64,000 nucleotides of DNA from Actinomycetota bacterium (GCA_033851845.1 JAWWOH010000036.1:3945-67944), one strand, 5' to 3'; positions 3,057 to 50,207 are shown, counted from the first letter of the stretch. A program made the numbers and translations. Notes: generated by a model not told the origin, from the letters alone.

Positions 3057-3082
3057 GCAGGTCCGCTCCCGAATCCGGCGAA
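3057..3082 (+). promoter_or_regulatory. Putative alternative-sigma promoter GCAGG-N16-GCGAA upstream of the ftsH-like operon
   Basis: Same bipartite motif and 16-nt spacer recur at 41610-41635, 46523-46548 and 50182-50207. Confidence 0.55.
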
Positions 3083-3184
3083 CCTTTCGACCCAGCACCC
3101 ACTCTCAGAGCTCAGGCCCCCGGCACACCGGTGTTGGTCGATCCCAGCACGACGAGGCCGGTCATCCCGGCGAGGAGGAAACCC

Positions 3185-5329
3185 GTGGCACAGGCTGGCG
3201 GCCAGCGGACCGGCACGGGGTCCGGCGAACCCACCGGGTTCGTCGACAAGGTCCGGGCCCGCATCCACGCGGCGCGACGCAAGCGGGCGGCGACGAAGGG
3301 CCCCGGCGGCAAGGGCCTGCTCTTCACGCTGATCGCGACGCTCGTCGTCCTGGTGGTGTTCTTCCTGACCTCGCTGGCGATCCTGTTCGGCAACCCTGAG
3401 GGCAAGAAGATCTCGGTCTCCCAGCTGGCGGCGCTCGCCTCGGCCGGCCGCGTCGACACGGCGACGTTCCTCGACGAGGACAGCCAGGTCGTCGCGAAGA
3501 TCCGCAGCATCTCCGACGCCACGGCGAAGGCTGCGGCGGACAAGACCGCGCCGGTCGCGGCGACCAACCCGCACGTCGACGGCGTTTCCGACGACGCGGT
3601 GACCGTGCGGTCGGCGTACCCCAACAACGGCTCGACGACCAACTCGACCATCCAGCTGCTGCAGACCTCCGGCGCCAAGGTGAGCGTCGACCCGCAGGCC
3701 GGTCAGGCGCGGCTGCGGATCTTCACCGAGTTCCTGCTGCCGGTTCTGATCCTGGCCAACCTGTTCGGCCTGCTCTTCGTCGGCAAGGGCAGCGGCGGCG
3801 GTGCCATCGGCGAGGTCACCAACTTCGGCCGCGTCGACGACGGCAGCCGCACGGACGGCAACAACGTCACGTTCGCCGACGTCGGCGGCGCCGACGAGGC
3901 GGTCACGGAGCTGGCGGAGGTCCGCGACTACCTGCGCAACCCGGAGAAGTACAGGGCGCTCGGCGCCGCTCCGCCCAAGGGCGTGCTGCTGTTCGGCCCT
4001 CCTGGCACAGGCAAGACGCTGCTCGCCCGCGCCGTCGCCGGCGAGGCCGGCGTGCCCTTCTTCTCGGTCGCCGGTGCGGAGTTCGTCGAGTCGCTCGTGG
4101 GTGTCGGCGCGGCCCGCATCCGCGACCTGTTCCGCCGGGTCCGCGCCGTCGCACCCGCCATCGTCTTCATCGACGAGCTGGACGCCGCCGGCCGCAAGCG
4201 CGGCAGCGGCGGAGGCGGCGGCGGCTCGGACGAGCGCGAGCAGACCCTCAACCAGCTGCTCGTCGAGATGGACGGCTTCGAGACGACCAGCGGCATCGTC
4301 GTCATCGCCGCGACCAACCGCCCCGACATCCTCGACCCCGCCCTGATGCGCCCCGGCCGCTTCGACCGGCACATCACCGTCGAGCGGCCCGACGCGGAGG
4401 GACGCGAGCGCATCCTCAAGATCCATGCGGCGCGCAAGCCGATGAGCTCCGACGTCGACCTCAACCGCATCGCCGCGCGCACGCCCGGCTTCACCGGTGC
4501 CGACCTCGCCAGCGTCGTCAACGAGTCTGCGCTGCTGACCATCCGCCGCAAGGGCAACACGATCACCATGAAGGAGTTCGAGGAGGCGGTGATCCGCGTC
4601 CTCGAGGGTCCGCAGCGCCGCGGTCAGGTGCTCACCGAGGAGGAGCGCCGTCGCGCGGCGTACCACGAGATCGGGCACGTCGTCGTCGCCGCGACTCTCG
4701 GTCGGCACGAGGACGTGCACCGGGTGACCGTGCTCGGCCGCGGCCGCACGCTCGCCGCTGCGACCTTCGCCGACAAGGAGGCGACGCTGCTCACCCGCAG
4801 CGCGCTGCACACCCAGCTGGTCGCGACCCTGGGTGGCATCGCCGCCGAGGAGCTTGTCTTCGGCGAGGGCTCGACGGGCGGCGAGCAGGACCTCGAGCAC
4901 GCCACCGACCTGGCCCGGGACATGGTGACCAAGTACGGCATGTCCGACGAGGTCGGTCCGGTCCGCCTGCAGGTCAAGGCCGGCGAGGGCTTCCTCGGTG
5001 ACGACTCGTCGCTCGTCGACCTCTCCCCCGAGACGCAGCGCGACGTCGAGGACGCGGTGCGCGGGATGATCACGGCCGCGCAGCGTCAGGCCACGAAGAT
5101 CCTGCAGTCGCACCGGCGCGAGCTCGACACGCTCGCCGTCCGGCTGGACGAGGAGGAGACCCTCGAGGACGACGTCCTGCAGGAGGCCCTCGCGCCGCTG
5201 CTGACCGCGATCGAGTCCAAGAGCAACGTTAGCCCGCAGACGACGACCCGCCGACCGAAGGCGGCGAAGGCCGCTGCCGCTGCCGGCGTCAACGGAACGA
5301 CGCGCGCCCGGGCGGCGGCGAAGTCCTGA
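3185..5329 (+). CDS. ftsH: ATP-dependent zinc metalloprotease FtsH (divergent paralog)
   Basis: Two N-terminal TM helices, Walker A GPPGTGKT, Walker [36 protein letters not shown] zinc motif; GTG at 3185 follows AGGAGG (ORF track start 3008). Confidence 0.92.
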
Positions 5330-5331
5330 GG

Positions 5332-8016
5332 ATGTCGACCCTGCGTTGGCGCGCGATGCTCGCCGGCGCCACCCTGCTGGTAGCGGTGGTGCCCGCGGTG
5401 TCGTTTGCCGTGTCCCCGCCACTGACCTGCCGCACGGCGAGCGGCGTGCTGTGGCAGAAGATCGCCGTCGAGGCGTTCCGCCAGGTTCCTGGCGTGACGA
5501 CGACGGACAAGATCACGTCGTACGCCGTCGATGCGCAGCATCCCGGCACGGTGGTGGTCACGAACGGCACGACGATCAAGCGCAGCACGCACGCCGGCTG
5601 CGACTGGTCCGACGCGTTCTCGCTCGGGCTGCAGCCGTCCGCGGACGTGCCGCTGTCCGGTCAGACCGCGAAAATCACCGCGATGACCGTCATCAACGGT
5701 CGCGTGCTGGCGGCGGTGCGCGAAGGCACCGGACCGGCGAGCCGGCCGCACGTCGTCGGCAGCGACAGCGGACGGCCGGGCACCTACGCCGCCTCCGACA
5801 GCGGCTTGCCGCCGCAGGGTGCACCGAAGCTGCTTCGCTCGGCGTACGACGGCCGCACGGTCTACCTCGCGCTGTCACCTGTCTCCAACGACGAGGGACC
5901 CGTCGGGACGGGCGGCATCCCGAGCCTTCCGCCGGTGGACAACCCCACGACCGGCGGTGAGAACGGCCTGCTCTACGCGTCGACGGACGGTGGGCACAGC
6001 TGGTCGCTGCGGACCTCCGCCACCGACCTGCCCGCCGGTGCCGGCGTCGACCAGCTCTCGGTCGACCACGGCAACGCGAACCTGCTCTACGCGACCTCGA
6101 ACGGACTGCTGTACGTCTCTCACGACGGTGGCTCGTCATTCACCCGCGCACGGGTCAACAACGAGGACGTCACCGCGGTCGAGGCCATGGCGCCGGGCCA
6201 GGTCATCGTGTTCACCCGAAGCGGCGTCGTGCTGACCAGCACGGACGGGGGGAACCGGTTCAACGGGACCCGCAGCATCGCGGGTGTGACGTCCGCGGCG
6301 TACCGCGCCGGCGACAGCCACGTCGCCGTTGAAGCCAACGGAAGCCTGTCGGTCATCGACCCGCGGACGGGTTTCGCCTCCGTGTCCGGCGGGCCCTCTG
6401 CGACCCGCGGCAGCCTGTCCGGCGACGTCGCGCCCCAGTCGACGTTCCACGGGCTCTCCGGCCATGCGCTGCTCCGGTTCGCCGACCCGCCGCCGCCCCA
6501 TCAGACGGAGACACCGGTCAGCGTCGACGACCTCGGCGTGCCGCCGCCGCCGCCGGGACGCATCACGCCCGGCGCGCGCACCGTCCAGCTCAAGGTCGGG
6601 ACGTCAGGCGTCTACGACTACACGCTGGCGATGCCGAAGAGCCCGACCCCGCTCGACCTGTTCTTCCTCATCGACACGTCCGGCTCGATGTCGGGCTACA
6701 TCGACAACCTCAAGGCCAACATCAGCAAGGTCACCCATGCGGTGCAGGGCGCCGGCATCAACCTCGAGGTCGGTGTCGGGACCCTCGGCACGGGCGCGCG
6801 CCCCGGCGAGGTCGTGCCGCCGTACGTCAATCCCAAGGATCCCAGCGACCGCGGCTCGAAGCTCTACGCGCTCTTCCGGCGCATCGGCCCCGTCGACTCT
6901 GACTTCGCCCGCGCGCTGGCCAGCGTGCAGGTGAAGAACCAGGGCGGCAACAACCCCGCCGAGGGTCAGCTGGCCGCGTTGCAGCAGGCCACCTGGGGAC
7001 CGGGCATCAAGGACCCGAACACCCCGCTGTGGCTGGTCGACCCTGGTCAGGACGCCGGCTGGCGGGCCGCCCCCGGCGTACGACGGATCATCGTGCACGC
7101 AACCGACGAAGCGTTCGACAAGCCGGCCGGATCACCGGTGAAGCCCAACGGCGACCTCGACTACGACACCGTCATCCGCCAGATGAACGCCTACCGCGTC
7201 CAGCAGATCGGCATCACGACCGGCGCCATCGAGTCACGCGACGACCTGGCCCGGATCGCCCGAGCGACCCACACGCTCGCGCCGCTCGGCGGCTCCGACT
7301 GCGGTGAGGGCGAGATCCTGCCGGCCGGGTCACCGCTCGTCTGCGACACCGAGGGAGACTTCAGCGCAATCATCGGGCGCCTGGTCAAGAGCCTGCAGGA
7401 CCACGCCGACGTCAGCCTCTCGGCGCGCGGCAGCTTCGGCCGAGTCATCCGCGGCCTGGACGCCAGTCACCTGCAGGGCGTCGACGTGACCAGGCCGAAC
7501 GCGCTGCCGTTCAAGGTCGCCGTCACGTGTGTGGGCCTGTCGCCGGGGACCTATCACGAGGACCTGACGGCCAGCCTGCGCGGCGTGCGAATCGCGACGA
7601 GCAAGCTCACCGTCTCCTGCCTCGGCCCTGTCGCGGCCGCCCGGCTGATCCCGCCGGTCACCCCGGCGGTCGCGCCGGCGCCGCCACCCCCCGCGCCGGT
7701 CGCGGTCGTCCCTGTCCCGCCGGCGGCACAGCCGCAAGCCGCTCCGCAGACGCAGCCGCAGGCCCAGGTCAACCCCGTGACGGCCGCGGCCTTGCAGCGC
7801 CAGCAGCAGCTGCAGCTGGCGCTCGCCCTGCAGGCCGGCCTGGAGATCCCGGACGACGACGACGAGGTCCAGCTCGCGATGGTCGGCCACCGACGCCAGG
7901 ACGAGTCCGCCGCACTGACGCTCCTCGCGACGGCGATCCTCGCCTCGTCGGCGTTCGGCCTGGCCCGGCTGCGGTCCCGGCCGGAGCCCAGCGTGGTCCG
8001 CAACCGGGTGCGCTGA
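5332..8016 (+). CDS. Secreted, C-terminally anchored protein: Asp-box beta-propeller + vWA (integrin-beta I-like) domain + Pro/Gln-rich stalk + TM helix
   Basis: Signal peptide; Asp-boxes STDGGHSW, SHDGGSSF, STDGGNRF; MIDAS DTSGS; C-terminal hydrophobic helix followed by Arg-rich tail; starts 2 nt after the ftsH stop. Confidence 0.85.
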   Translation: MSTLRWRAMLAGATLLVAVVPAVSFAVSPPLTCRTASGVLWQKIAVEAFRQVPGVTTTDKITSYAVDAQHPGTVVVTNGTTIKRSTHAGCDWSDAFSLGLQPSADVPLSGQTAKITAMTVINGRVLAAVREGTGPASRPHVVGSDSGRPGTYAASDSGLPPQGAPKLLRSAYDGRTVYLALSPVSNDEGPVGTGGIPSLPPVDNPTTGGENGLLYASTDGGHSWSLRTSATDLPAGAGVDQLSVDHGNANLLYATSNGLLYVSHDGGSSFTRARVNNEDVTAVEAMAPGQVIVFTRSGVVLTSTDGGNRFNGTRSIAGVTSAAYRAGDSHVAVEANGSLSVIDPRTGFASVSGGPSATRGSLSGDVAPQSTFHGLSGHALLRFADPPPPHQTETPVSVDDLGVPPPPPGRITPGARTVQLKVGTSGVYDYTLAMPKSPTPLDLFFLIDTSGSMSGYIDNLKANISKVTHAVQGAGINLEVGVGTLGTGARPGEVVPPYVNPKDPSDRGSKLYALFRRIGPVDSDFARALASVQVKNQGGNNPAEGQLAALQQATWGPGIKDPNTPLWLVDPGQDAGWRAAPGVRRIIVHATDEAFDKPAGSPVKPNGDLDYDTVIRQMNAYRVQQIGITTGAIESRDDLARIARATHTLAPLGGSDCGEGEILPAGSPLVCDTEGDFSAIIGRLVKSLQDHADVSLSARGSFGRVIRGLDASHLQGVDVTRPNALPFKVAVTCVGLSPGTYHEDLTASLRGVRIATSKLTVSCLGPVAAARLIPPVTPAVAPAPPPPAPVAVVPVPPAAQPQAAPQTQPQAQVNPVTAAALQRQQQLQLALALQAGLEIPDDDDEVQLAMVGHRRQDESAALTLLATAILASSAFGLARLRSRPEPSVVRNRVR

Positions 8017-8116
8017 GCCCGGACGTGACCGGCGGCACCCGCCCCGCCGCGACGGCATCGGGCTGAGCGAGGGTAGTAAGGACGGAAGCCGTCCCTTCGC
8101 CAGCCTGGAGCAGTCC

Positions 8117-10261
8117 GTGACCGAGCCCGAGCCGAGCAGTTCCGTGGTCAGCAGCGTCTGGCCGGGCTCGGCGTACCCGCTCGGGGCGACGTACGACGGC
8201 AGCGGGACGAACTTCGGGCTGTTCTCGGAGGTGGCGGAGCGGGTCGAGCTGTGCCTGTTCGACGAGGCGGGCAACGAGACCCGGGTGGACCTGACGGAGC
8301 GCGACGCGTTCGTCTGGCACGGGTACCTGCCGAACATCGGGCCGGGGCAGCGCTACGGGTTCCGGGTGCACGGCCCGTACGACCCGGAGCAGGGCCATCG
8401 CTGCAACCCGACCAAGCTGCTGCTCGATCCCTACGCGAAGGCGGTCGACGGGCAGATCGACTGGGGCCAGGCCTGCTTCTCCTACACCTGGGGCGACGAG
8501 GACTCCTTCAACGACGAGGACTCCGCACCGCACATGAGCAAGTCGGTCGTCATCAGCCCGTTCTTCGACTGGGACAACGACCGGCACCCGCGTACGCCGT
8601 ACAGCGACACGGTCATCTACGAAGCGCACGTCAAGGGCCTGACGAAAACGCATCCCGCGATACCGGAGGAGATGCGCGGGACGTACGCCGCCGTCGCCCA
8701 CCCGGTGATGATCGAGCACTACAAGAAGCACGGCATCACCGCGATCGAGCTGATGCCGGTCCACCAGTTCGTCCACGACAGCCACCTGGTGGAGCGCGGA
8801 CAGCGCAACTACTGGGGTTACAACACGATCGGCTTCTTCGCGCCCCACAACGAGTACGCCGCCGCACGCTCTCCGGGACAGCAGGTCCAGGAGTTCAAGG
8901 CGATGGTCAAGGCGCTTCACGCCGAAGGTCTCGAGGTGATCCTCGACGTCGTCTACAACCACACCGCCGAGGGCAACCAGCTCGGTCCGACGCTGTCGTT
9001 CCGAGGCATCGACAACGCCAACTACTACCGGCTCGTCGACGAGGATCGCAAGCACTACTACGACACGACCGGCACCGGGAACACGCTGCTGATGCGCAGC
9101 CCCAACGTGCTTCAGATGATCATGGACTCGCTGCGGTACTGGGTGCTCGACATGCACGTCGACGGCTTCCGCTTCGACCTCGCGTCGTCACTGGCCCGCC
9201 AGTTCCACGAGGTCGACCGCCTCTCGGCGTTCTTCGACCTCGTACACCAGGACCCCGTGGTCAGCCAGACCAAGCTCATCGCGGAGCCGTGGGACATCGG
9301 GTACGACGGCTACAACGTCGGCGGCTTCCCGCCCCTCTGGACGGAGTGGAACGGCAAGTACCGCGACACGGTGCGGGACTTCTGGCGCGGCGAGCCGGCG
9401 ACCCTCGCGGAGTTCGCCTCGCGCCTCACTGGCTCGGCCGACCTGTACGAGGACGACGGGCGCCGACCGTTCGCTTCGATCAACTTCGTCACCGCTCACG
9501 ACGGGTTCACGATGCACGACCTCGTGTCCTACAACGAGAAGCACAACGAGGCCAACGGCGAGGGCGGGCAGGACGGCGAGAGCAACAACCGCTCGTGGAA
9601 CTGCGGGGTGGAGGGCGAGACGGACGACCTCGAGATCGTCGCGCTGCGCGAGCAGCAGAAGCGCAACTTCCTCGCGACGCTGTTCCTCTCGCAGGGGGTC
9701 CCGATGCTGGTGCACGGCGACGAGGTCGGCCGCACCCAGCACGGGAACAACAACGTCTACGCGCAGGACAACGACCTCGCGTGGGTCGACTGGGAACGCG
9801 CCAAGGACTTCGAGGTCCTCTCCGACTTCGTCAGCCGGCTGGCCAAGCTGCGTCAGGAGCATCCCGTGTTCCGCCGCCGCCGGCACTTCCAGGGGCACGT
9901 CGTGAAGGGCTCGGAGATCCACGACATCGGCTGGTTCACGCCGGACGGCGGATGGATGAACGAGGACGACTGGGAGTCGGGGTTCGCCAAGTCCGTCGCT
10001 GTCTTCCTGAACGGCGAGGGCATCCGGGAGCCGGACCTGCGCGGGGAGCGCATCGTGGACACGTCGTTCTTCCTGCTGTTCAACGGAAGCGATGGCCAGA
10101 TCGAGTTCACGCTGCCCGACATCGGTGCCGGCGAGCGCTGGGACGTGGCGCTCGACACCGCCGCGCCGATGCTCGTCGACGCGGAGAGCCGCTCGGTCAA
10201 GACCGGCGAGCCCGTCGAGGTGGATGCCAGATCAGTGCTCGTCGTGCAGAAGGTCTTCTGA
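8117..10261 (+). CDS. glgX: Glycogen debranching enzyme GlgX/TreX (GH13 isoamylase)
   Basis: WPGSAYPLGATYDG, NYWGYNT, DVVYNHTAEG, DGFRFDLA, IAEPWD, FVTAHDGFT. Confidence 0.96.
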   Translation: MTEPEPSSSVVSSVWPGSAYPLGATYDGSGTNFGLFSEVAERVELCLFDEAGNETRVDLTERDAFVWHGYLPNIGPGQRYGFRVHGPYDPEQGHRCNPTKLLLDPYAKAVDGQIDWGQACFSYTWGDEDSFNDEDSAPHMSKSVVISPFFDWDNDRHPRTPYSDTVIYEAHVKGLTKTHPAIPEEMRGTYAAVAHPVMIEHYKKHGITAIELMPVHQFVHDSHLVERGQRNYWGYNTIGFFAPHNEYAAARSPGQQVQEFKAMVKALHAEGLEVILDVVYNHTAEGNQLGPTLSFRGIDNANYYRLVDEDRKHYYDTTGTGNTLLMRSPNVLQMIMDSLRYWVLDMHVDGFRFDLASSLARQFHEVDRLSAFFDLVHQDPVVSQTKLIAEPWDIGYDGYNVGGFPPLWTEWNGKYRDTVRDFWRGEPATLAEFASRLTGSADLYEDDGRRPFASINFVTAHDGFTMHDLVSYNEKHNEANGEGGQDGESNNRSWNCGVEGETDDLEIVALREQQKRNFLATLFLSQGVPMLVHGDEVGRTQHGNNNVYAQDNDLAWVDWERAKDFEVLSDFVSRLAKLRQEHPVFRRRRHFQGHVVKGSEIHDIGWFTPDGGWMNEDDWESGFAKSVAVFLNGEGIREPDLRGERIVDTSFFLLFNGSDGQIEFTLPDIGAGERWDVALDTAAPMLVDAESRSVKTGEPVEVDARSVLVVQKVF

Positions 10262-10264
10262 CCT

Positions 10265-14122: not shown

Positions 14123-14270
14123 GCTTCCACCCAAAATTGTCCGAATGTGTCGTGTTCTCATCGACTCCCGGCGCGGTGGTCTTCAGCCCGAGGCCGAAGA
14201 TGATGCGAAGCGACCATGAGACTGCTCACGTCGTGACTACTCGCAAGGCGCGCAGGGGAGGCTGTCGGGG

Positions 14271-18025: not shown

Positions 18026-18029
18026 CAAC

Positions 18030-24289: not shown

Positions 24290-24360
24290 CCCTCGCAGGA
24301 GCTCGCGCTGACACGCCGAACGTCCTGAACGCGGCCGGCCATGCCCCGGCCCCGGGGACG

Positions 24361-38995: not shown

Positions 38996-39167
38996 CAGCA
39001 ACGACCTCTGCCGGCTACGCGAGCCAGCCGCAGGTTTGCCGCTGCGCGCTGGACGCTATGCCCGCGTCTGCCGATTGCCCATGGTCAGGACGGACCGGGC
39101 AGAACCGTCCGATCGGCAACGTCTGCTAGCAAGATCACGCAATGTCGCGCGAGGGACAGCGAACTTC

Positions 39168-41600
39168 CTAGATCGCGTACGCCGGCAGCAACCCGCTCAT
39201 CCGGACCGCACGAAGAACGTCGGCGACGCGCTCTGCCGAGGTCTGCGCGGCGACCGGCTTCGCGCTGGTCTCGCTGCGCGCGCCGATGCCGCTCAACCGC
39301 ACGGACCAGGCGCCGCGGCCGAAGTTGGCGGCGAACAGCATCGAGGTCGGCGCGTGCCAGCGCAGCTCGGTGATCGGCGCGTTGGGCAGGCCACTGCCCA
39401 CCTTCAGCCAGCTGCGGCCGAGGTTCTTGCTGACCGACCGCGACAGGAACACACCGACATCGGTCGCCACCAGCAGGTCATCGCCGATGGGCACGACGTC
39501 GTTGACCGGTGCCTGCGGCAGGTTGCCGCTGATGTCCTTCCACGTCTTGCCGCCATCGGCCGTGCGGTAGACGAGTGACCTGCTCTTGCCCGAGCGGAAG
39601 CCGGAGAAAGACGCGAAGGCGACGCTCTTGGCGTTGCGACGGTCGATCGCCACGGACGTCACCCAGTCGGTCGGCAGGCCGGTCGCCCGGGTCCACGTCG
39701 TACCGCCGTCATGGGTGTACTGCACGCGACCGTCGTCGGTGCCCGCGTAGATCGTGCCGAGGTCGGCGTACGCGACTGCGAGGGTGGTGATCGTGCCGTA
39801 GTTGCGGAAGAGCGGGTTGGTCTCGCGCCCGGGCCCGCCGGTGAGGTCGGGGCTGATCGGCGTCCACGACGCGCCGTCATCGGTGGACCGGCTGACGATC
39901 TCGCTGCCGGTGTAGACGGCGTGCGGCTCGCCGGGGTCGAACTCGATCGGGGTGAGCCAGCCCTTGCGCGTTCCGACGACGGAGTTGTCGAAGGCCGTCA
40001 TGTTGGTGCCGCCATCATGGCTCACCGCGCAGGCCCCGTACTGGCTGCAGCCGTAGACGATCTTGTCGTTGCGCGGATCGATGGCCATCTCGGTGCCGTC
40101 GCCGCCGGTGATGTCGTTCCAGCCGTCATTGGCCGGGTCGTCGGTGCGCTTGTAGTTGCGGTTACCGCCGTTGTCCTGCAGACCGCCGACGATCCTGCGG
40201 GGGTCCTGCATGGACACGTCGATCGAGAACAGCTGGTTCCACGGCATGTACTCGCCGTGCTTGAACGAGGCGCCGTTGTTGTCCGAACGGTAGAAGCCGC
40301 CGTCGTTGCCGACGTACACACGACCCGGCACCTTGGGGTCCCATGCCATGCCGTGCTGGTCGGAGTGCAGGCCGGGGCTGCTGCCGAAGCTGACGCCGCC
40401 GTCGGTGCTCTCGGACATGTTCACCCCGGTGGCAAAGACGTGGTCGGGGTCCTTGGGGTCGACGTAGACGCGCCCGAACCACCACGCGTAGACGTAGCCG
40501 CCGGTCACCAGCGGCGTGTCGATCCCCGGCGTGAAGGTGCCGCCGGCGTCGTCGGACCGGTACATGCCGGCCGTCAAGCCGGCCTCCGTGGACGCGAGGA
40601 TGTAGACGCGGTCTGGGTTGCTCGGGGCGACCGCGATGCCGAGGCGGCCCAGCTCGGGGTTGGCCAGAAGTGTTGGTCCCCCGATGCGGGTCCACGTCTT
40701 GCCCGCGTCCAGGGACTTGAACGCGCCGCTGCCCAGGCCGGTGTACTGGCGCTTGTCGGGGTAGCGGATGCGGTCCCACATCGTCGTGTAGACGGTGTCG
40801 GGCTTGCGCGGGTCGAGCGCGATGTCGACGGCGCCGGCGGTCGCGGTCTCCGGCTTCAGTGCGAGCTTCCAGTGCTTGCCGCCGTCGGTGGTCTTGTAGA
40901 GACCGCGCACGCCGCCACCGCTGTAGAGCGGACCGTTCGCCGCGACCCACACGGTCTTCTCGTTGCGCGGGTCGATGACGACGCGGCCGATGCGCTCGCT
41001 GCCGTTCAGGCCCATCGCGGTCCAGTGCTTGCCGCCGTCGGCTGACCGGTAGACGCCGCTGCCGCCGTACGTAATGGATCCACCGCCCGGCCCGGCCTCT
41101 CCGGTGCCGGCCCACAGCACGCCGGTCTTGCTGATGGCGAGCGCACCGACGGCCTGGGTCATCTGGGTCGGCCACACGCTCGAGAACCGCTTCCCCCCGT
41201 CGCCGCTGTGCCAGACACCGCCACTTGCGGTCGCGAGGTAGACGCTGTCGCGTCGCAGCGGGTCGACCACCACGTCGAGGACCCGGCCGCCGATGTTCGT
41301 CGGGCCCTTCAGCGACCAGGTCGCCCTGGCGAGCCCGGGGTCGCTCTTCGCCGTCGATGCGGCGATCTGCTGCGCTTGCGCATCGGCCTTCGCCCACGCG
41401 CCGGTGGGAATCACCCCACCGCGCTGCCCGAGCATCTCGTCGCCAGGCTCCTGCTCCGCGTCGGACAGCGCGGCCAGGCCGGCCGCGGTGACGCCGGGCA
41501 CGGCACGGCTGGCCTGCGTCGCAGTCACGGCAGCGGGCATCCCGGCCAGGGCCGGCAGCGCCAGCAAGGCAGGCAGGAGCAAGAGCGGCGTACGACGCAT
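39168..41600 (-). CDS. Secreted VPS10/sortilin-like Asp-box beta-propeller protein (putative glycosyl hydrolase)
   Basis: Signal peptide, GPTNIGGR, many S/TxDGGxxW boxes, HSDQH, VGNDGG, GGLQDNG, DISGNLP. Confidence 0.9.
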   Translation of the reverse strand: MRRTPLLLLPALLALPALAGMPAAVTATQASRAVPGVTAAGLAALSDAEQEPGDEMLGQRGGVIPTGAWAKADAQAQQIAASTAKSDPGLARATWSLKGPTNIGGRVLDVVVDPLRRDSVYLATASGGVWHSGDGGKRFSSVWPTQMTQAVGALAISKTGVLWAGTGEAGPGGGSITYGGSGVYRSADGGKHWTAMGLNGSERIGRVVIDPRNEKTVWVAANGPLYSGGGVRGLYKTTDGGKHWKLALKPETATAGAVDIALDPRKPDTVYTTMWDRIRYPDKRQYTGLGSGAFKSLDAGKTWTRIGGPTLLANPELGRLGIAVAPSNPDRVYILASTEAGLTAGMYRSDDAGGTFTPGIDTPLVTGGYVYAWWFGRVYVDPKDPDHVFATGVNMSESTDGGVSFGSSPGLHSDQHGMAWDPKVPGRVYVGNDGGFYRSDNNGASFKHGEYMPWNQLFSIDVSMQDPRRIVGGLQDNGGNRNYKRTDDPANDGWNDITGGDGTEMAIDPRNDKIVYGCSQYGACAVSHDGGTNMTAFDNSVVGTRKGWLTPIEFDPGEPHAVYTGSEIVSRSTDDGASWTPISPDLTGGPGRETNPLFRNYGTITTLAVAYADLGTIYAGTDDGRVQYTHDGGTTWTRATGLPTDWVTSVAIDRRNAKSVAFASFSGFRSGKSRSLVYRTADGGKTWKDISGNLPQAPVNDVVPIGDDLLVATDVGVFLSRSVSKNLGRSWLKVGSGLPNAPITELRWHAPTSMLFAANFGRGAWSVRLSGIGARSETSAKPVAAQTSAERVADVLRAVRMSGLLPAYAI

Positions 41601-41609
41601 GGTTGTTGC

Positions 41610-41635
41610 TTCGCCGTACGCCGCGTCAATCCTGC
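41610..41635 (-). promoter_or_regulatory. Putative promoter GCAGG-N16-GCGAA
   Basis: Lies 9 nt upstream of the ATG at 41600; motif shared with three other sites. Confidence 0.55.
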
Positions 41636-41673
41636 CTGTCCACCGCCCGCCTGCTCAAGCTTGCGTCGCGTCC

Positions 41674-42573: not shown

Positions 42574-42602
42574 GCCTCAGCACACCACGCGGTCGGGCCG
42601 GA

Positions 42603-43631: not shown

Positions 43632-43653
43632 GGCGCGAACGTACAGTGGCCAG
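43632..43653. promoter_or_regulatory. Bidirectional leaderless promoter with overlapping -10 hexamers
   Basis: TACAGT (+, 43642-43647) and TACGTT (-, 43638-43643) share the central TA, each 6 nt from an ATG. Confidence 0.65.
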
Positions 43654-44292
43654 ATGGCAGATCCGTCGACCGTGGGCGGCGATCGCTCGTTGTTCCTCAC
43701 CGTCAACGAGTGGGCGCGGGACACTCCGTGGCTGCACGGTCTGCTGCGGACGTACGCCGGCTACGGGGTCGTCCTGTTCGCTGCGCTGCTCGTGGTCGGC
43801 TACCTGCTCGCACGGAAGCGACGCGACCTGGACCTGCTGGCGGCATCGCTGTGGGCGGCGCTCGCACCGTTGATCGCCGTGGGCCTCAACCAGCCGATCG
43901 CGTCCGGTGTCGGCGAGCAGCGACCATTCGTGGTCTTCCCGCACGCCCTGCTGCTGGCCCACCGGTCGGCCGATCCGTCGTTCGCGTCCGACCACGCGAC
44001 GATGGCCGGCGCGGTTGCCGTCGGCCTGTTCCTCGTCTCGCGTCGACTTGGCGCCGTTGCGGCTGTCGCCGCCGTCCTGATGGCGTTTGCGCGCGTGTAC
44101 GTGGGCGCGCACTTCCCGGTCGACGTGCTTGCGGGGCTGCTGCTCGGAGGCTCTGTCGCAGGCCTCGGTTGGCTCGTGCTGCGGCGCCCGCTCAAGGCCG
44201 CGCTCGCGCTGATCGGGCGAACACCGCTCGCGTTCGCCGTCCCCCTCGACCACGGCCCGCGGAAGCTCTCAGTTCAGCCGGGGGTGGAGTGA
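43654..44292 (+). CDS. PAP2-family phosphatase (undecaprenyl-PP phosphatase-like)
   Basis: RPF, PSFASDH, ARVYVGAHFPVDV; TM helices. Confidence 0.9.
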   Translation: MADPSTVGGDRSLFLTVNEWARDTPWLHGLLRTYAGYGVVLFAALLVVGYLLARKRRDLDLLAASLWAALAPLIAVGLNQPIASGVGEQRPFVVFPHALLLAHRSADPSFASDHATMAGAVAVGLFLVSRRLGAVAAVAAVLMAFARVYVGAHFPVDVLAGLLLGGSVAGLGWLVLRRPLKAALALIGRTPLAFAVPLDHGPRKLSVQPGVE

Positions 44293-44802
44293 GCGGGCTG
44301 CCGCACTGTCCGGCCATCGCACCGGGTGCCGGCCGCTGAGCTGGTCGAGGATCTGGCTGATGCACCACCGCCGGTAGGCGAGGCAGTCGTCGGGAGTTGC
44401 CAGGTCGAGCAGCTCGTTACCGCTCCAGCAGTAGTAGTCGGCCTCGTCGAGCGTCTCGGCGACCGAGCGCATGATGTCGGCCGCCTCTTGCGGCAGCTCG
44501 ATCACCAGGTCGTCGATCGTCTCGACGCCGCTGTCGATGGCGTCGGTGAGGATCCGCTCGGCTTCGTCATTGAGCCCGGCGAACTGCTGCGTCAACGCGA
44601 GATAGACGTCGAGCAGGCGGACGGGGACCTCGTTCCCGCTGCCCTTGGTGCCGGTCTCGATCGCGTCCGCGACCAGGAAGGCGAAGACGCGCAACAGCTC
44701 CTCCCGGTGCCGGCGAGACTTCGCAGCGAGCGGCACGGGCACCGCGCGCAGGTGCACGGGGACGAGCTCGTCACGGTCGGACGCCGTCAAAGCGGGGGGC
44801 AT
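44269..44802 (-). CDS. Conserved hypothetical protein
   Basis: Actinobacterial-type helical protein with LDEADYYC...LL.L.......YRRW...QL.G..P..W. Confidence 0.7.
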   Translation of the reverse strand: MPPALTASDRDELVPVHLRAVPVPLAAKSRRHREELLRVFAFLVADAIETGTKGSGNEVPVRLLDVYLALTQQFAGLNDEAERILTDAIDSGVETIDDLVIELPQEAADIMRSVAETLDEADYYCWSGNELLDLATPDDCLAYRRWCISQILDQLSGRHPVRWPDSAAARSLHPRLN

Positions 44803-44886
44803 GGCTCGATCGTCGCTTGTGTCCGCTTCTGTCGGTATCGCCCGCCAGGACCAAATGCGTCCCCTACCGACGTACTAGCCGATGGC

Positions 44887-46479
44887 CTAGCGGTGGCTGT
44901 CCCGGCTGATCCAGGTGGCGGGACCGCGCAGCGCGGGGCCGCTGACCTCGCGGATCACCACGCCCTGCATGTCCTGCGCCGCACCGTGCGGGTCGCCGGC
45001 CTCGTACGTCACGATGTCGTCGTCGTTCTCTCCAGGCACTCGCTTCGTGCTGCAGTCGGCGAGCTTGGTGCAGGTGTCGACGGCCGTCGCGAAGACCCGG
45101 CCCTGGTCGCCCGGTGCGGCCACGATGTCGAGGAAGTCGTACATCCGGCCGCAGCGGCCGTTGCAGTCGCCACGGTGCACCGGATCCCACGTCGGGTTGG
45201 CGGTGTTGGACAGGAACAGCGGGTTGGCCGACAGCGCGTCGGTTGACATCACGACGTAGCTGTTCCACGGGCGGGCCTTGTCCTTCGTGCCCTCGGTCGT
45301 CGTACCCGGGAACGTGATCGCCAGCCGGCCGGGATCACCGACGTCGATGGTGGGGAAGTCGGTGGCCTTCACACCCGGCGGCGCGATCATCAGCGGCGTG
45401 CTCCAGTGCTCGCCGTGGTCGCGGCTGATCGACAGGTACGGCAGGTTGAACTTGTTGTCCTGCCAGACGTAGTAGAGGTTGTCCTTCTTGTCGACGGCTA
45501 CCGACGCCTGCTGGCCGGACATGCCGATGCCGGAAGACACCTGCACGTCGTGGAAGGTGTTGGCGGCGTCGCTCGAGATGCCGATCATCGGGATCTGGCA
45601 GTAGCCACGAGGGACGAACAGCCGCCCGAAGCGGTCGGTGACGGCATGGCCGTGCAGGCTCCCGCAGATGCCCTCGTTGTGGTCGCTGTCGAAGCTGGCG
45701 AGATACTCGGGGTTGAAGGCCTCATAGCCCGTCTGGTTGCCCTGCACGAAAGTGCGGCCGCCATCGAAGCTGCGCGCACAGGCGCCGTACCCGATGGAGT
45801 TGACGCAGTAGTACAAGACCTTCTGGTACGCCGGGTCGAGCAGTGGCACCGTCACGCCTTCGGGCTCGACGCCGCTGACGAGCGTCTGGTGATCGTTGAC
45901 GCCGGTGCTGGTGAGCACCGTGTCCGTCCAGCTCTTGCCGTCGTCGTCCGAGTAGGCAAGGTGCGCCCCGTTGACGCCCTGCAGGTCGATGTCGAAGATG
46001 CGGCCGTTGCCCTTGGACACGTTGGGGTCCACGAAGATGTACGGGTCGGTCGAGACGACCATCGTGTTCTGACCCCCCACCGCGGGCTGGGCCTCCTTCC
46101 ACGTTCGGCCGCCGTCGGTCGACTTCTCCACCAGCGTCCGCGGCTCGTTCTTCGGCGGGTTGCCGGGGATCGCGTCGAACGCGGCGGCCACGGTGTAGAT
46201 GTCGCCGTTCTTGGCCACGCCCAGGGTCGGCTCTGCCGCCTTGCGCCCGACGTAGCTCTGCGCCAGCACGAGGGGACCCCCGCCGTACGAGATCTGCGTG
46301 TTCTGCGGCAGGTCCTTGGGCTGCGCCGTCAGGTGCAACCCGTGGTACGCCGCGAAGCCACCAGGATCGCCGCCGAAGGTCCCGGCTCCGAGCTCACTGC
46401 TTCCTGCCTGTGAGGTGGCGGTGAGCGTGACGATCGCGCCGATGGCGAGTCCGGCGATCGCGATGGTCCGACGAGACAT
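44887..46479 (-). CDS. Secreted Asp-box (sialidase-like) beta-propeller protein
   Basis: Signal peptide; STDGGRTW, SDDDGKSW, SFDGGRTF, SRDHGEHW; GGAG RBS. Confidence 0.87.
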   Translation of the reverse strand: MSRRTIAIAGLAIGAIVTLTATSQAGSSELGAGTFGGDPGGFAAYHGLHLTAQPKDLPQNTQISYGGGPLVLAQSYVGRKAAEPTLGVAKNGDIYTVAAAFDAIPGNPPKNEPRTLVEKSTDGGRTWKEAQPAVGGQNTMVVSTDPYIFVDPNVSKGNGRIFDIDLQGVNGAHLAYSDDDGKSWTDTVLTSTGVNDHQTLVSGVEPEGVTVPLLDPAYQKVLYYCVNSIGYGACARSFDGGRTFVQGNQTGYEAFNPEYLASFDSDHNEGICGSLHGHAVTDRFGRLFVPRGYCQIPMIGISSDAANTFHDVQVSSGIGMSGQQASVAVDKKDNLYYVWQDNKFNLPYLSISRDHGEHWSTPLMIAPPGVKATDFPTIDVGDPGRLAITFPGTTTEGTKDKARPWNSYVVMSTDALSANPLFLSNTANPTWDPVHRGDCNGRCGRMYDFLDIVAAPGDQGRVFATAVDTCTKLADCSTKRVPGENDDDIVTYEAGDPHGAAQDMQGVVIREVSGPALRGPATWISRDSHR

Positions 46480-46522
46480 CAGGGCACTCCAGGCAGTGGG
46501 CGAGCAAGGTTTCCGGGTTGTC

Positions 46523-46548
46523 TTCTCGCTGGCCTGGTGAATTCCTGC
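46523..46548 (-). promoter_or_regulatory. Putative promoter GCAGG-N16-GAGAA
   Basis: Upstream of the secreted propeller gene starting at 46479. Confidence 0.55.
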
Positions 46549-46585
46549 CGGCAGTCCGGTTGGTGGATGCTGGTCCAGTGAATGC

Positions 46586-46611
46586 GGAACCGAGGGTGGG
46601 CAGCCCGCGTC
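46586..46611 (+). promoter_or_regulatory. ECF-type promoter GGAACC-N16-CGTC
   Basis: AAC...CGT ECF pattern 8 nt before the lipoprotein ATG; a similar site lies at 52770. Confidence 0.5.
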
Positions 46612-46619
46612 CCATCGGC

Positions 46620-47222
46620 ATGAGACTCGCCCTCGTCGCTGCGGTCATCGCGGCGGCGGCCGCCTGCGGTGGTTCCAATGCCGACCAGCACCTGGCCGTG
46701 TCGCCGCCCCGCGGCACACAGCCGCCGCTGCAGGAGGCAAGTGCCGTTCCCGCGGACCCCGCCGAAGCCACGCCGTCCGACGCCGCCTACACACCTGGTC
46801 CAGCAACCGCTCGGGCGATGCCCGATGCGGCGTACGCCGGAACTGCCACCAGCGGCCCGGGCCACATCAGCTCACCACCGCCGTCATCGTCGCCGCGCCC
46901 TACGCCGGGCGCGATCGACGGAACTGTGACGGTCACCGATGACGACAGCGGCAGCACCCTGCACGTGCGCGTCGGTCAGCGTCTCCGCGTCCGGCTCTCA
47001 TCGGGCACGTGGGATCCACCGGTCAGCTCGGCCGACTCGGTAGTGACGCGCCGCAGCAGCAACGGCGGCTACCCGACCGATCAGCCTGTCGATGCGGTGT
47101 TCGACGCGGTCGGCAGGGGGGCTGCTGACGTCACCGCGCAGTCGGACGCGGCCTGCTTCCACACCGAACCACGTTGTCTCATGGCCTCGCGCCAGTGGCA
47201 GGTCCACGTCGTCGTCGGCTAG
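46620..47222 (+). CDS. Lipoprotein with C-terminal chagasin/I42-like Ig domain
   Basis: Lipobox AAAAC; Pro-rich linker; VTDDDSGSTLHVRVGQRLRVRL...W; Cys pair near the C-terminus. Confidence 0.7.
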   Translation: MRLALVAAVIAAAAACGGSNADQHLAVSPPRGTQPPLQEASAVPADPAEATPSDAAYTPGPATARAMPDAAYAGTATSGPGHISSPPPSSSPRPTPGAIDGTVTVTDDDSGSTLHVRVGQRLRVRLSSGTWDPPVSSADSVVTRRSSNGGYPTDQPVDAVFDAVGRGAADVTAQSDAACFHTEPRCLMASRQWQVHVVVG

Positions 47223-47259
47223 ACAGCGCTGCCTGGCAGGTGCTGGCACGATCACAGCC

Positions 47260-47829
47260 ATGCTTCTCCCGTTCACCCCCCTGCTGCCGGTCCGGACCGA
47301 GCGGCTGCTGCTCCGCGCGTTCCGCGCCGACGACTTCGACGCGCTACTGCCGATCCACTCGGACCCGGTCAACGTGCGCTACGTGCCCTTCGAGGCCAGG
47401 ACGCCCGAGGACATGCAGGTCGCGCTCGAGAAGAAGATCGCGGGCACGACGTTGGCCGCCGCCGGTGACGGCCTCGGGCTCGCCGTCACGCTCCACGACG
47501 GCACGCTGGTGGGCGACCTCAACGTGTTCCTGCACACGCCGGAGCACGGAACCGTCGAGCTCGGCTGGATGTTCGACCCCGCCCACAGCGGCCGCGGCTA
47601 CGCGACGGAGGCCGTGCGCGCCCTGCTGGACCTGGTGTTCGGCGGCCTGCAGGCCCGACGGATGGTGGCCCGGGTCGAGGCTCGCAACACGGCATCGCTG
47701 CGCCTGTGCGAGCGGGTCGGCATGCGCAAGGAGGCCCACCTCGTGGAGAACGAGATCTTCAAGGCCGAGATCTCCAGCGAGGTCGACTACGCGCTGCTCG
47801 CGCGCGAGTGGCCGATCGCACCGGCGTAG
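47260..47829 (+). CDS. GNAT acetyltransferase (RimJ/RimL-like)
   Basis: TERLLLRAF, ELGW...HSGRGYATEA, NTASLRLCERVGM. Confidence 0.92.
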   Translation: MLLPFTPLLPVRTERLLLRAFRADDFDALLPIHSDPVNVRYVPFEARTPEDMQVALEKKIAGTTLAAAGDGLGLAVTLHDGTLVGDLNVFLHTPEHGTVELGWMFDPAHSGRGYATEAVRALLDLVFGGLQARRMVARVEARNTASLRLCERVGMRKEAHLVENEIFKAEISSEVDYALLAREWPIAPA

Positions 47830-47852
47830 TCCGGCGTACTGGGAGGCACCTC

Positions 47853-47901
47853 GGTCGACCTTGCGGAGGTCAACCCCGGCTGAGGGCCTTCGGTCAGGCC
47901 C
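47853..47901. terminator. Hairpins between convergent genes (possible bidirectional terminator)
   Basis: GGTCGACCT-N5-AGGTCAACC and GGGCCT-N6-AGGCCC inverted repeats; no U-tract. Confidence 0.35.
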
Positions 47902-50146
47902 GCCGACGACGAAGTGCCACGGCGAGCGCGATGAGTCCGAGGCCGACCAGCGGCAGCTGCAGCCCGAGGCCCGTGGCCGCGAGGTTGCCGCCGCTGGGCG
48001 CTCCGGAGCCGCCACCGGAGGCGGGCGGCGGGGCGCCGCCGCCCTTGGGCGGAGTCACCGGCGTGACCGGTGCGGCAGCGTTGCCGACGACGTGGTTGAA
48101 CGGTGCCGTCTGGTCGAGCACGTTGATGACGCCCTCGGGGTTGCCCGACAAGGAGGCGAGCGTCGAGCCGGTGAACGCGGTCGCGCTGTAGATCGGTTGG
48201 CCGCGCTTCGCGCCGGGGATGTCGGCGAACGGCACATGCAGGGTGATGGTGCCGTTCGGCTTGTAGTCGCCCTTGATCGCGCGTGCGCTGTCGAAGGCCA
48301 TGCTGATCTGCACCCCGGCCGGACTCGGTGCGCCGACGTCGCCGTCGAAGAACCGCGGTGCCTGACCGGCGACGCTCTCCATACCCGCGTAGTAGATGTG
48401 CCCGTTGCCTGGAGTCGCGGGGTTGTACGTCGTGAAGCGGGTGATCCACGTCCCCGTCGTACCGCCTGCCGTCGGGTTGATCTGCAGGCTCTCCAGCGAC
48501 TTGACCTTCATCGTGATGACCAACCCCCCGGCGTCCTCGCTGACGGAGGCAGCCGTGAGGTCGACGTTGTCGCCGGCCGGTGTGCGGGTGCTGTTCGCGC
48601 TGTAGAGGCTGTCGCCGCTGCGATCGCTGATCGTGTTGACGGGCAGCGAGCCGTGCGGCGTCTTGCCCGCGATCATGGTCGGTCCACCGATCTGCTTCTG
48701 GTAGACCGGCGGGCCGTTCTCGGCAACCGCTCCGGTCGGCCCGGTCGTGAAGCTGTTGGACGTGTCGTCGACGTACACGAGGGCGAGGCCGCCGTCCTGG
48801 TCGACACCGAGGTTGAGGTAGTCACCGAGCGACCGGTCGCCCATCGACACCGTGCAGGTCGTGCCGGCTGTGCAGATCGGTCCGTACTTGATGGGGTGCT
48901 CGCTCGCCGTCACGACGTCGTAGTGCGGGTTCGCGGCCAGCGCGTCGATGCTCTGCGCGACCTGCACCGAGAACTCCGCGTGCGCGAGGTCGTCGAAGGC
49001 GTACTTGCCGCTCTCGCCCTCTTCGTTCGCGTGGTACCACGCGACGGCGACCCGGCCCTCGCTGCCTGCGGTCAGCCACGGGAACGCGTTGGAGCCGTCC
49101 TTGCTGACAAGCACGGACGGTCCCCAGGTGCTGCCACCGTCCTTGGACACGTTGACGTAGACGCCGTACGGCGCCTTCGGCTCCTGCGCGCTGTTGACGA
49201 GATAGAGGTTGCCGGCGCTGTCCTGCTGGATGGTCGGGAAGTTCGTCGACCCGCAGATGCCGGAGGTGTTGCCGTTCTTCAGCGGGCAGATGTCGCCGTT
49301 GACGAGCACGTCCTTCCAGGTCGCGGTCGTGACTGCCGCCTGCCCGCTGCCCGTGGTCGTCGGGTGGCCGACGCTCACGTAGACCGAGTTGCCGTTCTGC
49401 CCGCTGTGGGCGATCACCAGGTCGCCCTTCTTCGTGAGGATCTGGTTGCCCGGCAGGCCCTCCTCGTTCGTCACGCAGTTGACGACACCGCCACCGAGGC
49501 AGTCCGGCCCCGGGTTCGCGTTGACGACCGGCGTGAAGTTGGCGCCGTCATGACTGACGATCTCGACCAGCTGATTGCCGATGGGGCTGTTCGGGCTCGT
49601 GTTGGACAGGACCGCGTCGTACTCCTCGTAGATCGCGAAATCCGGGTCACCGAGCTTGCCGTGGCTGGCATACCACATCCGGTCGACCGGGGTGTTCGGC
49701 GCAGAGGTGCAGGAGAAGTTGAAGGTCTTCCCGCCGTCGGTGCTGACCGCGTTGGACAGGTTCGAGAGGTTCTGCAGGTCGGACAGGTAGAGGTTGTCGC
49801 CCTCGTCACGCTGCAGCTCGGTGTCGCCGCCGCCCTGCGGGCATGTCAGCGGCTTGCCGACGCCGAACTGGCCCGGGATGAGCTGGAAGCTGTCGCCGCT
49901 GTCGAGGGAGTTCCAGATGAAGCTGTGCGCCTGCGACGAGCCGTTGGGCACGCTCGAGTACAGGACGTTCTTGGAGCTCACGACGATGTCCGGCTCGAAG
50001 CCCGAGCGCTGGTGATCGATGATCACCTCGTGGCCGAAGACAGGGCCGGCCGGCGTGCTCGTCGCGGCGCCGGCCGGGAATGCGGCGGCGGCGGCACCGG
50101 CCAGAGCCAGAGCGGACAGGATCAGGGGCAGGCGACGCAGACGCAC
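47894..50146 (-). CDS. Secreted Asp-box beta-propeller protein with sortase-type LAxTG anchor
   Basis: Signal peptide; SLDSGDSF, STDGGKTF, SHDGANF, SKDGGSTW; C-terminal LAATG + hydrophobic helix + RRRRA. Confidence 0.88.
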   Translation of the reverse strand: MRLRRLPLILSALALAGAAAAAFPAGAATSTPAGPVFGHEVIIDHQRSGFEPDIVVSSKNVLYSSVPNGSSQAHSFIWNSLDSGDSFQLIPGQFGVGKPLTCPQGGGDTELQRDEGDNLYLSDLQNLSNLSNAVSTDGGKTFNFSCTSAPNTPVDRMWYASHGKLGDPDFAIYEEYDAVLSNTSPNSPIGNQLVEIVSHDGANFTPVVNANPGPDCLGGGVVNCVTNEEGLPGNQILTKKGDLVIAHSGQNGNSVYVSVGHPTTTGSGQAAVTTATWKDVLVNGDICPLKNGNTSGICGSTNFPTIQQDSAGNLYLVNSAQEPKAPYGVYVNVSKDGGSTWGPSVLVSKDGSNAFPWLTAGSEGRVAVAWYHANEEGESGKYAFDDLAHAEFSVQVAQSIDALAANPHYDVVTASEHPIKYGPICTAGTTCTVSMGDRSLGDYLNLGVDQDGGLALVYVDDTSNSFTTGPTGAVAENGPPVYQKQIGGPTMIAGKTPHGSLPVNTISDRSGDSLYSANSTRTPAGDNVDLTAASVSEDAGGLVITMKVKSLESLQINPTAGGTTGTWITRFTTYNPATPGNGHIYYAGMESVAGQAPRFFDGDVGAPSPAGVQISMAFDSARAIKGDYKPNGTITLHVPFADIPGAKRGQPIYSATAFTGSTLASLSGNPEGVINVLDQTAPFNHVVGNAAAPVTPVTPPKGGGAPPPASGGGSGAPSGGNLAATGLGLQLPLVGLGLIALAVALRRRRA

Positions 50147-50181
50147 AGGGACTCCTCAGGACAGCTTTCGACTCGTCAGCC

Positions 50182-50207
50182 TTCTCCACTGACGGGCGCA
50201 TACCTGC
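50182..50207 (-). promoter_or_regulatory. Putative promoter GCAGG-N16-GAGAA
   Basis: Upstream of the LAxTG propeller gene. Confidence 0.55.

Follow-up and report, generated by a model that had tools for sequence, protein, structure and literature searches.

SigD of the Mycobacteriales is an extracytoplasmic function (ECF) sigma factor for which the portion of the published account drawn on here reports 72 chromatin immunoprecipitation (ChIP) sites in Mycobacterium abscessus, with more than half of the direct targets envelope-associated or secreted and WhiB and TetR among them, and a promoter that reads GTAACA/G-N16-CGAT in this species and GTAACA/G-N17-18-GAT in Corynebacterium glutamicum (PMC13537577). 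Other ECF factors are built into larger proteins: the actinobacterial groups ECF48, ECF52 and ECF53, of which SCO4117 is an example, have a fused membrane-spanning C-terminal extension (PMC8999054, PMC5826349) and, by their description, carry a zinc-finger (ZAS-like) domain that separates sigma-4 from the membrane, proteolytic release being the model proposed for the activation of fused ECFs (PMC8999054). In Pseudomonas putida, IutY (ECF243) is a sigma fused to a membrane anti-sigma and is released by Prc and RseP (PMC8999054). Here we analyze a short element, GCAGG-N16-G(C/A)GAA, that recurs in a 64,000-nucleotide stretch of DNA (the window; positions 3945-67944 of contig C98 in assembly G000) from an uncultured Frankiales-like actinobacterium, whose closest named records are metagenome-assembled genomes (MAGs) labelled Frankiales or Frankiaceae bacterium. 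We conclude that it is a promoter-like element of an ECF-type sigma factor marking a secretome-wide regulon in one uncultured actinobacterial family, and that the cognate factor is probably a membrane-anchored alternative sigma not described before. No published description of this motif was found in the literature searched; the group promoter motifs of the ECF reclassification lay outside that search and may hold a match.

The assembly comprises 3.65 Mb in 146 contigs at 70.5% G+C and is listed as 88% complete, and its genes were taken from a custom codon-usage caller that placed 3239 genes over 89% of the sequence. In the window, the pattern has four exact matches against 0.33 expected, with four or more occurring in none of 100 dinucleotide-preserving shuffles; these are the four sites reported by an earlier reading of the sequence (the first-pass annotation), each of which proved exact in position and strand. 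Across the assembly there are 55 exact matches, 44 of them intergenic and 40 within 150 nt upstream of a co-oriented gene, whereas the same boxes at 13 other spacers (10-15 and 17-23 nt) gave 7-58 matches each, with only 0-2 in such a position. An iterated position weight matrix (PWM) has the consensus rGCAGGA(a)(t)(t)-N8-R-C-G-(G/T)-C-G-A-A and at a threshold of 16 finds 94 matches, 88 of them intergenic, compared with 3-12 intergenic matches at that threshold when its 3′ half is shifted by 1-2 nt. Neither the 16-nt spacer nor either flank is conserved. The motif is a real, oriented and strictly spaced element with about 90 sites in this incomplete genome, and its two short boxes with a near-invariant spacer, as judged from the 13 other spacers and the shifted matrix, are those of an ECF promoter.

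The position of the motif relative to coding regions was examined for 79 intergenic sites with a PWM score of at least 16 and a gene within 200 nt, after refinement of start codons. The end of the site lies 9-11 nt before the start codon in 28 of the 79 (14 at 9, 7 at 10 and 7 at 11 nt; 23 ATG and 5 GTG). At 25-70 nt there are 41 sites, with only 3 falling in between, at 12-24 nt. Another 5 are more than 70 nt away and 2 less than 9 nt, and of this last pair one is probably a false match inside a TetR gene. A core Shine-Dalgarno sequence is present in 28 of 48 leadered cases. Leaderless TANNNT promoters of the housekeeping sigma are usual in actinobacteria, and in G000 this hexamer stands exactly 6, 7 and 8 nt before the start codon of 207, 156 and 35 of 3151 genes, respectively; about 400 genes, roughly 13%, thus appear to be leaderless from housekeeping-type promoters, which argues that leaderless transcription is common in this genome and that the start calls are usable. 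The sites ending 9-11 nt before a start codon accordingly suggest leaderless mRNAs, so that about one third of motif promoters would give transcripts of this kind, the motif ending at -10 to -12 relative to the predicted start and GCAGG beginning at about -35. The first-pass annotation had expected transcription to begin about 6-9 nt past GAA; the distance implied by these 28 sites is instead 9-11 nt. The invariant GAA block overlies the position of the TANNNT hexamer in the 207 genes with a 6-nt gap, and a housekeeping -10 therefore cannot coexist there. The motif behaves as the promoter of an alternative sigma of ECF type would, its two boxes being rigidly spaced and standing at a set distance from start codons, and the original proposal is supported in this respect.

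Signal peptides were called by a custom rule, the refined version of which let each gene begin at its earliest in-frame start codon yielding a signal peptide. By this measure a signal-peptide-like N-terminus is found in 74 of the 79 targets and, when the same procedure is applied to genes overall, in 1257 of 3156 (odds ratio 23.7, p = 1.4e-24), and with unrefined starts the rule is satisfied by 62 of 79 targets versus 760 of 3170 genes. The enrichment upstream of signal-peptide genes that a genome-wide scan had been predicted to reveal is therefore present in the weight-matrix scan, while the label "secreted-propeller regulon" given by the first-pass annotation turns out to be too narrow. BNR/Asp-box/Sortilin-type Pfam matches (E <= 1e-3) occur in at least 17 targets, and Asp-box proteins make up roughly a fifth of about 80; conversely, a six-frame Pfam search of G000 gave 26 Asp-box genes, of which 10 are preceded, at no more than 300 nt, by a site with a score of 14 or higher. 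Other propellers among the targets are of the LVIVD, PQQ_2 and FG-GAP types, and these are joined by several S15 peptidases, esterases and lipases, two DUF6351 tannase-like proteins, a GH92 protein, a ceramidase, a PNGase A, a sedolisin, a multicopper oxidase, an amidase, a caspase-domain protein and a 2143-residue Kelch/beta-helix protein. About 25 targets have no family, and two paralogous sets of small secreted proteins among them own the best-scoring promoters. The property common to the targets is export and not the propeller fold, and the regulon would comprise about 90 transcription units, 2.5-3% of genes, nearly all of them encoding exported proteins. Targets without a signal peptide are a GGDEF protein, a WhiB, a 578-residue exosortase, an LPG_synthase_TM protein and an FtsH paralogue, and the genes downstream of the motif also include a TetR-like gene and two ECF sigma genes.

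To find a candidate reader, sigma genes were scanned for the motif in their own promoters. Of 37 Sigma70_r2 matches in G000, 33 have a called gene and upstream sequence to scan, and a score of 10 or more in the 400 nt upstream is reached only by the gene at C62:9893-11023, outside the window, whose site scores 14.7 and stands 56 nt from the ATG; the runners-up score 9.1 and 9.0. Its 376-residue product, hereafter the C62 sigma, has Pfam matches to Sigma70_r2 (residues 42-106) and Sigma70_r4_2 (135-184) and to no other sigma domain, and thus consists of sigma-70 regions 2 and 4 without 1.1 and 3, as an ECF factor does. In NCBIfam only the generic ECF model, TIGR02937, is above its cut-off (74.6 bits versus 42.9), and the nearest solved chains are SigE, SigL and SigW. 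After sigma-4 (135-188), the homologues carry an invariant 25-residue segment, RGGTLP..GL...APW...L....R. A conserved hydrophobic stretch at about 227-245, predicted to be a membrane helix, comes next, then a linker that is variable and rich in Ser and Pro, and finally an end of about 70 residues with four invariant or near-invariant cysteines and an LPxNP motif; an alignment of 24 homologues shows the extension to be conserved. The sequence of residues 190-226, RGGTLPVAGLAALAPWISGLRWADRLRAAATRLA, contains neither Cys nor His, and Pfam gives no zinc-finger family. An AlphaFold2 model of the protein has a mean predicted local distance difference test score (pLDDT) of 60.8, the extension lying mostly below 50-68, and places a helix at 214-239 at low confidence. 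The four-cysteine domain is predicted to be extracytoplasmic, a location that its cysteines fit; it has no family match in Pfam or NCBIfam, and a Protein Atlas comparison of the extension gave a best score of 0.77, below the level where chance matches are common.

Homologues of the C62 sigma form at least 120 clusters at 54-84% identity, and every labelled one comes from an uncultured Frankiales, Frankiaceae, Mycobacteriales or Actinomycetota MAG. A motif in the promoter of a sigma gene, which the first-pass annotation had named as something to look for, precedes the C62-type gene at 9 of the 10 orthologous loci from genera g1, g7 and g9 (scores 12.2-29.5; G003 is the locus without it), a count from which the 31-33% identical paralogues L181, L183 and L184 were left out. 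In further loci it was found in 6 of 20 (5 of 8 in g11, the single locus of g27 and none of 11 in g2), not including L319, where a score of 11.3 falls 271 nt upstream at a different conserved element. The leader before the C62-type gene (L172-L179, L316-L335) is itself conserved across genera as CGCGAGG(T/A)..CGTTG..GTCGG..CCCAGCCCCCGAC.GAAGAGG, in which GTCGG and CCGAC could pair beside the Shine-Dalgarno sequence; this leader is kept even in the motif-free g2 loci and may be a second control element.

The distribution of the motif was followed in two sets of genomes. In a comparison of 30 relatives, each of the 8 other genomes of the genus is enriched for the pattern (13-55 copies, versus 0-5 for a reversed-pattern control), as are some genera of the family. 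No enrichment is seen in 12 other families of the order; the counts there are 1-7 copies, or 18 in a genome of 6.2 Mb, and A is not preferred after GCAGG. When 78 genomes of the family were surveyed, GCAGGA-N13-CGNCGAA had 0-39 copies (controls 0-5), and the number varied within genera. This variation runs parallel to the presence of the C62-type sigma: all 40 genomes that have it hold at least 6 motif copies (6-39, median 22), compared with 9 of the 38 without it, which have a median of 2 and in 29 cases at most 4 copies. In genus g2, sigma-positive genomes hold 6-31 copies and sigma-negative ones 0, 0, 0, 1, 3 and 19; within g11 the corresponding figures are 11-39, and 0-3, 7 and 14. Two unpublished genomes, G010 and G024, are counted in the motif-poor, sigma-negative set and contribute to no other result.

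Based on this co-occurrence and on the motif in front of the sigma gene, we consider the C62-type membrane-anchored sigma the probable reader of the motif, and hold this view with moderate confidence. It would recognize GCAGGA as the -35 box and CG(G/T)CGAA as the -10 box, with exactly 16 nt from GCAGG to G(C/A)GAA and transcription starting 9-11 nt after GAA. The protein would be held at the membrane by its single helix until the Cys domain senses an extracytoplasmic cue, and activation would probably proceed by proteolytic release, as proposed for other fused ECFs; the active sigma would then switch on the secretome and, in several genera, also its own gene. A different use of the same architecture, which we think improbable, is that the C62 sigma stays tethered and, without any release, draws RNA polymerase and some 90 promoters to the cytoplasmic face of the membrane. 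The secretome, a third of it predicted to be leaderless, would then be transcribed, translated and exported at one place, a coupling device with the FtsH paralogue as quality control, and this too we regard as a long shot. Such tethering would fit a protein that has no ZAS domain and an invariant stretch joining sigma-4 to the helix, and a regulon composed nearly exclusively of signal-peptide genes, although none of these features demonstrates it.

Compared with the described systems, the C62 sigma and its motif share most with SigD in the make-up of the regulon: both are ECF sigmas of the same broad actinobacterial group with tens of sites and with WhiB and TetR among the targets. Their promoters also share a plan, a hexamer followed by N16 and CGA(T/A), which is GCAGGA-N16-CGAA here. 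The -35 box, however, is GCAGGA instead of GTAACA/G, so that the motif is not a SigD promoter as the consulted part of that account defines it; in addition, the sigma is fused to a membrane and extracytoplasmic extension, and the regulon consists almost purely of signal-peptide proteins, one third of them apparently leaderless. No specific sequence kinship of the C62 sigma to SigD was seen among NCBIfam models and solved chains. G000 contains four intergenic copies of GTAACR-N16-CGAT, one of them just upstream of another ECF gene, and this separate set indicates that the sigma-D-type and GCAGGA regulons are distinct. The copy in question, GTAACGCTCGCCGCGTCCGCCACGAT at G000:C41:29335-29360, precedes the ECF gene at C41:29437, which is probably a SigD orthologue with an autoregulatory promoter.

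In architecture, the likeness is to ECF48, ECF52 and ECF53, as far as the descriptions of these groups allow: an ECF core precedes one or two membrane helices with an extracytoplasmic tail beyond them, a layout predicted for the C62 sigma as well, and a separate anti-sigma gene is not needed. Unlike ECF52 and ECF53, compared here by their description, the C62 sigma has no ZAS-like domain (residues 190-226 lack Cys and His and match no Pfam domain), and its tail of about 130 residues has a four-cysteine domain in place of a proline-rich region and carbohydrate-binding domain. IutY, from what its description covers, is likewise a membrane-bound ECF in one polypeptide whose cytoplasmic part is active after processing, and offers an experimental precedent for the mechanism proposed here; it differs in belonging to another phylum and in having a FecR-like sensor and an iron-uptake regulon, and no homology of the extension was seen.

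Several observations weigh against the C62 sigma as reader. Its own site in G000, at 14.7, is a weak one in which the CG of motif positions 19-20 is missing, and in genus g2 all 11 sigma loci lack the motif upstream. A C62-type sigma was not detected in nine genomes that nevertheless hold 7-32 motif copies. Further ECF genes are driven by the motif, namely the one on C38, through an upstream gene, and the 173-residue L199 of G015, with a site scoring 20.0. Related genomes are non-independent samples, and the p-values for this reason overstate the case; both the gene caller and the signal-peptide rule are crude, the rule being positive for 24-40% of all genes.

The strongest of the rival explanations takes up these same points: the motif would be an ECF-type promoter read by another sigma, and the C62 sigma would be only one regulon member in a sigma cascade. 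With other ECF genes lying behind the motif, a sigma gene in that position can be a target and not the master, and both the nine exceptions among the 38 sigma-negative genomes and the motif-free sigma loci of g2 would follow naturally. Seven of the nine exception genomes, on the other hand, are at most 90% complete: G015 (14 copies) is 90% complete, and G033 (32 copies), G035, G052, G069, G075 and G007, with 9-32 copies, are 69-87% complete, leaving G002 (98%) and G018 (97%), with 7 copies each. A profile search for a diverged C62-type sigma in G002, G007, G015 and G018 matched only generic sigma-2 and sigma-4 regions. When reciprocal-best-hit profiles of the 37 Sigma70_r2 matches were compared between motif-bearing G002, G015 and G018 and motif-poor G009 and G012, none of the sigmas had a fitting distribution, and no candidate equals the co-occurrence of the C62 type in 40 of 40 genomes. 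We therefore consider a different reader unlikely, though a serious contender. Two specific candidates were tried and rejected: the C38-type ECF (207 residues, encoded after a motif-driven small secreted gene) has no match at E <= 1e-10 in the motif-bearing genomes G002, G007 and G008, and the L199-type ECF of G015, whose GTG lies 11 nt downstream of its site, occurs in 7 of 78 genomes, including G031 with no motif copies and G011 with 2.

A less probable explanation still, which we rate as quite remote, is that the two boxes are half-sites of an activator or repressor at promoters of some other sigma. WhiB and a TetR-like gene do occur among the downstream genes, and contact between a sigma factor and these boxes is a prediction. 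The boxes, however, do not repeat each other, whether directly or in inverted form, the element is strictly gene-oriented and ends 9-11 nt from 28 start codons, and the invariant GAA sits in the place of the housekeeping -10, so that no housekeeping -10 can be there. Moreover, the spacer does not tolerate a change of even 1 nt, and such zero tolerance is typical of recognition by ECF sigmas. That the element acts in RNA, as a translation or membrane-targeting signal in the 5′ leader, or is a dispersed repeat, is far-fetched: its tie to signal-peptide genes and its position just before the coding region would suit a leader, but the 16-nt spacer and flanks are unconserved, the boxes are not complementary to each other, 28 cases have just 9-11 nt to the start codon and no Shine-Dalgarno, and copies that are alike only in about 15 specified bases are not those of a mobile repeat.

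Turning to the window itself, all four sites are intergenic and lie upstream of a co-oriented gene. The strongest, GCAGGATTGACGCGGCGTACGGCGAA at 41610-41635 on the minus strand (PWM score 25.2), ends 9 nt before the ATG of an 810-residue secreted Asp-box/Sortilin-Vps10-type propeller (39168-41600, minus strand; signal peptide MRRTPLLLLPALLALPALAG; Pfam PF15902 at 4.4e-23, PF02012 and PF13088), whose mRNA is accordingly predicted to be leaderless. In an 87% identical orthologue, L093, both boxes and the 9-nt distance are kept and the spacer sequence is different. Also on the minus strand, GCAGGAATTCACCAGGCCAGCGAGAA at 46523-46548 (score 20.1) stands 43 nt before the ATG of a 530-residue secreted BNR/Asp-box protein (44887-46479; signal-peptide-like N-terminus MSRRTIAIAGLAIGAIV; PF02012 and PF13088 with E from 1e-6 to 3e-7), and GCAGGTATGCGCCCGTCAGTGGAGAA at 50182-50207 (score 18.2) stands 35 nt before the GTG start of a 750-residue secreted protein (47894-50146) that has a signal peptide, no Pfam match and a C-terminal LAATG sortase-type signal with a hydrophobic stretch and RRRR. 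The weakest of the four, GCAGGTCCGCTCCCGAATCCGGCGAA at 3057-3082 on the plus strand (score 17.3), is found 102 nt before an operon (3185-8016, plus strand) made up of an FtsH paralogue of 714 residues (3185-5329; Pfam Peptidase_M41, AAA and FtsH_ext) and, 3 nt later, an 894-residue Asp-box and VWA-like protein (5332-8016; PSII_BNR, Sortilin and Integrin_beta VWA).

Three FtsH paralogues are present in G000, the others being at C126:13341-15335 and C91:10068-11687, and the motif is tied to the window copy, whose orthologues in G001, G004, G005 and G006 are 81-89% identical. The site is kept in four of the five orthologous loci, those of G000, G004, G005 and G006, with four different spacers and scores of 17.3-21.6 (19.5-21.6 in the last three), while the G001 locus has one extra base and hence a 17-nt spacer. 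In the complete genome of G016, from genus g9, 20 exact-pattern sites were taken, 19 of them with an open frame downstream; 17 of these 19 precede signal-peptide-like N-termini, 7 lie at a distance of 9-11 nt, and one precedes a gene with an N-terminus like that of the FtsH paralogue. The link between Asp-box genes and this FtsH paralogue, as originally proposed, thus persists through a change of spacer sequence and recurs in a second genus.

A fifth match in the window, GCAGGAGCTCGCGCTGACACGCCGAA at 24295-24320 on the plus strand (score 17.5), was absent from the first-pass annotation; it is flanked by convergent gene ends, with no gene start in the downstream 1.7 kb, and could have arisen by chance or could drive an unannotated or antisense transcript. 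The poorer site that the same annotation had placed before the first propeller gene (window 1-2885), with GCAGG at 2942-2946 on the minus strand, is not a site at all, as the corresponding segment at 2921-2946 has a PWM score of -7.8. The divergent region upstream of the ftsH promoter, at window positions 2995-3050, contains GCGTCACA(C/A)T(G/A)TC, which is conserved in five of five orthologous loci (L301-L304 and the window), and TTGTGACAT, which is conserved in all three loci whose sequence extends that far. On the minus strand the conserved block reads TGTGAC-N16-CGTC and is directed at the first propeller gene; this we take to resemble ECF-type promoters, and by that likeness the first propeller gene may be under a different alternative promoter.

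Several groups of targets elsewhere in the assembly carry recognizable C-terminal sorting signals. An L(P/A)xTG motif followed by a helix and a basic C-terminus is found in 41 G000 proteins, 7 of which are targets, and (V)PE(V/A)P with a helix and an RRR(R) C-terminus is found in 20, of which 8 are direct targets and more are encoded in operons of targets; C72:36469 was left out as a false positive of the C-terminal regular expression. The target at C37:130545-132281 encodes the exosortase noted above (Exosortase_EpsH at 1.6e-16; TIGR04178 at 52.9 bits versus a cut-off of 23), with no named Xrt subtype reaching its cut-off in NCBIfam, and the regulon accordingly contains an exosortase together with substrates that have a PEP-like motif, a helix and an Arg cluster, as in PEP-CTERM/exosortase systems. 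In G000:C37:126559-144014 this gene lies amid several others encoding (V)PEVP, a helix and RRRR C-termini, and the cluster looks like an undescribed variant of PEP-CTERM-like sorting in an actinobacterium. Four paralogous secreted proteins of about 145 residues, without family (C77:2269-2712, C38:19925-20356, C24:24896-25351 and C52:22274-22702), have in common the C-terminal pattern ..CNF(S/A)GGP....(Y).FT(Y)K and promoters scoring 23.4-28.4. The C38 gene is followed by an ECF sigma gene and an overlapping gene for a probable single-pass anti-sigma, and the operon of small secreted protein and sigma behind the motif is kept in G004 and G005.

If the C62 sigma is indeed the reader, a single sigma would activate the majority of those exported hydrolases and surface proteins that can be identified in a widespread uncultured family of soil and freshwater actinobacteria, and its regulon would be unusually large and made almost wholly of exported proteins. 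It would also represent a new membrane-bound ECF architecture, one without a zinc-finger anti-sigma domain and with a four-cysteine sensor domain. The promoter is now paired with a sigma candidate, a combination that a few synthetic constructs could check. The motif provides a simple sequence tag with which to predict the conditionally expressed secretome in metagenome-assembled genomes, and dozens of proteins without a family match gain a regulatory context. Finally, within genera sigma and motif are repeatedly present together or missing together, which provides a natural experiment on the gain or loss of a regulon in this family.

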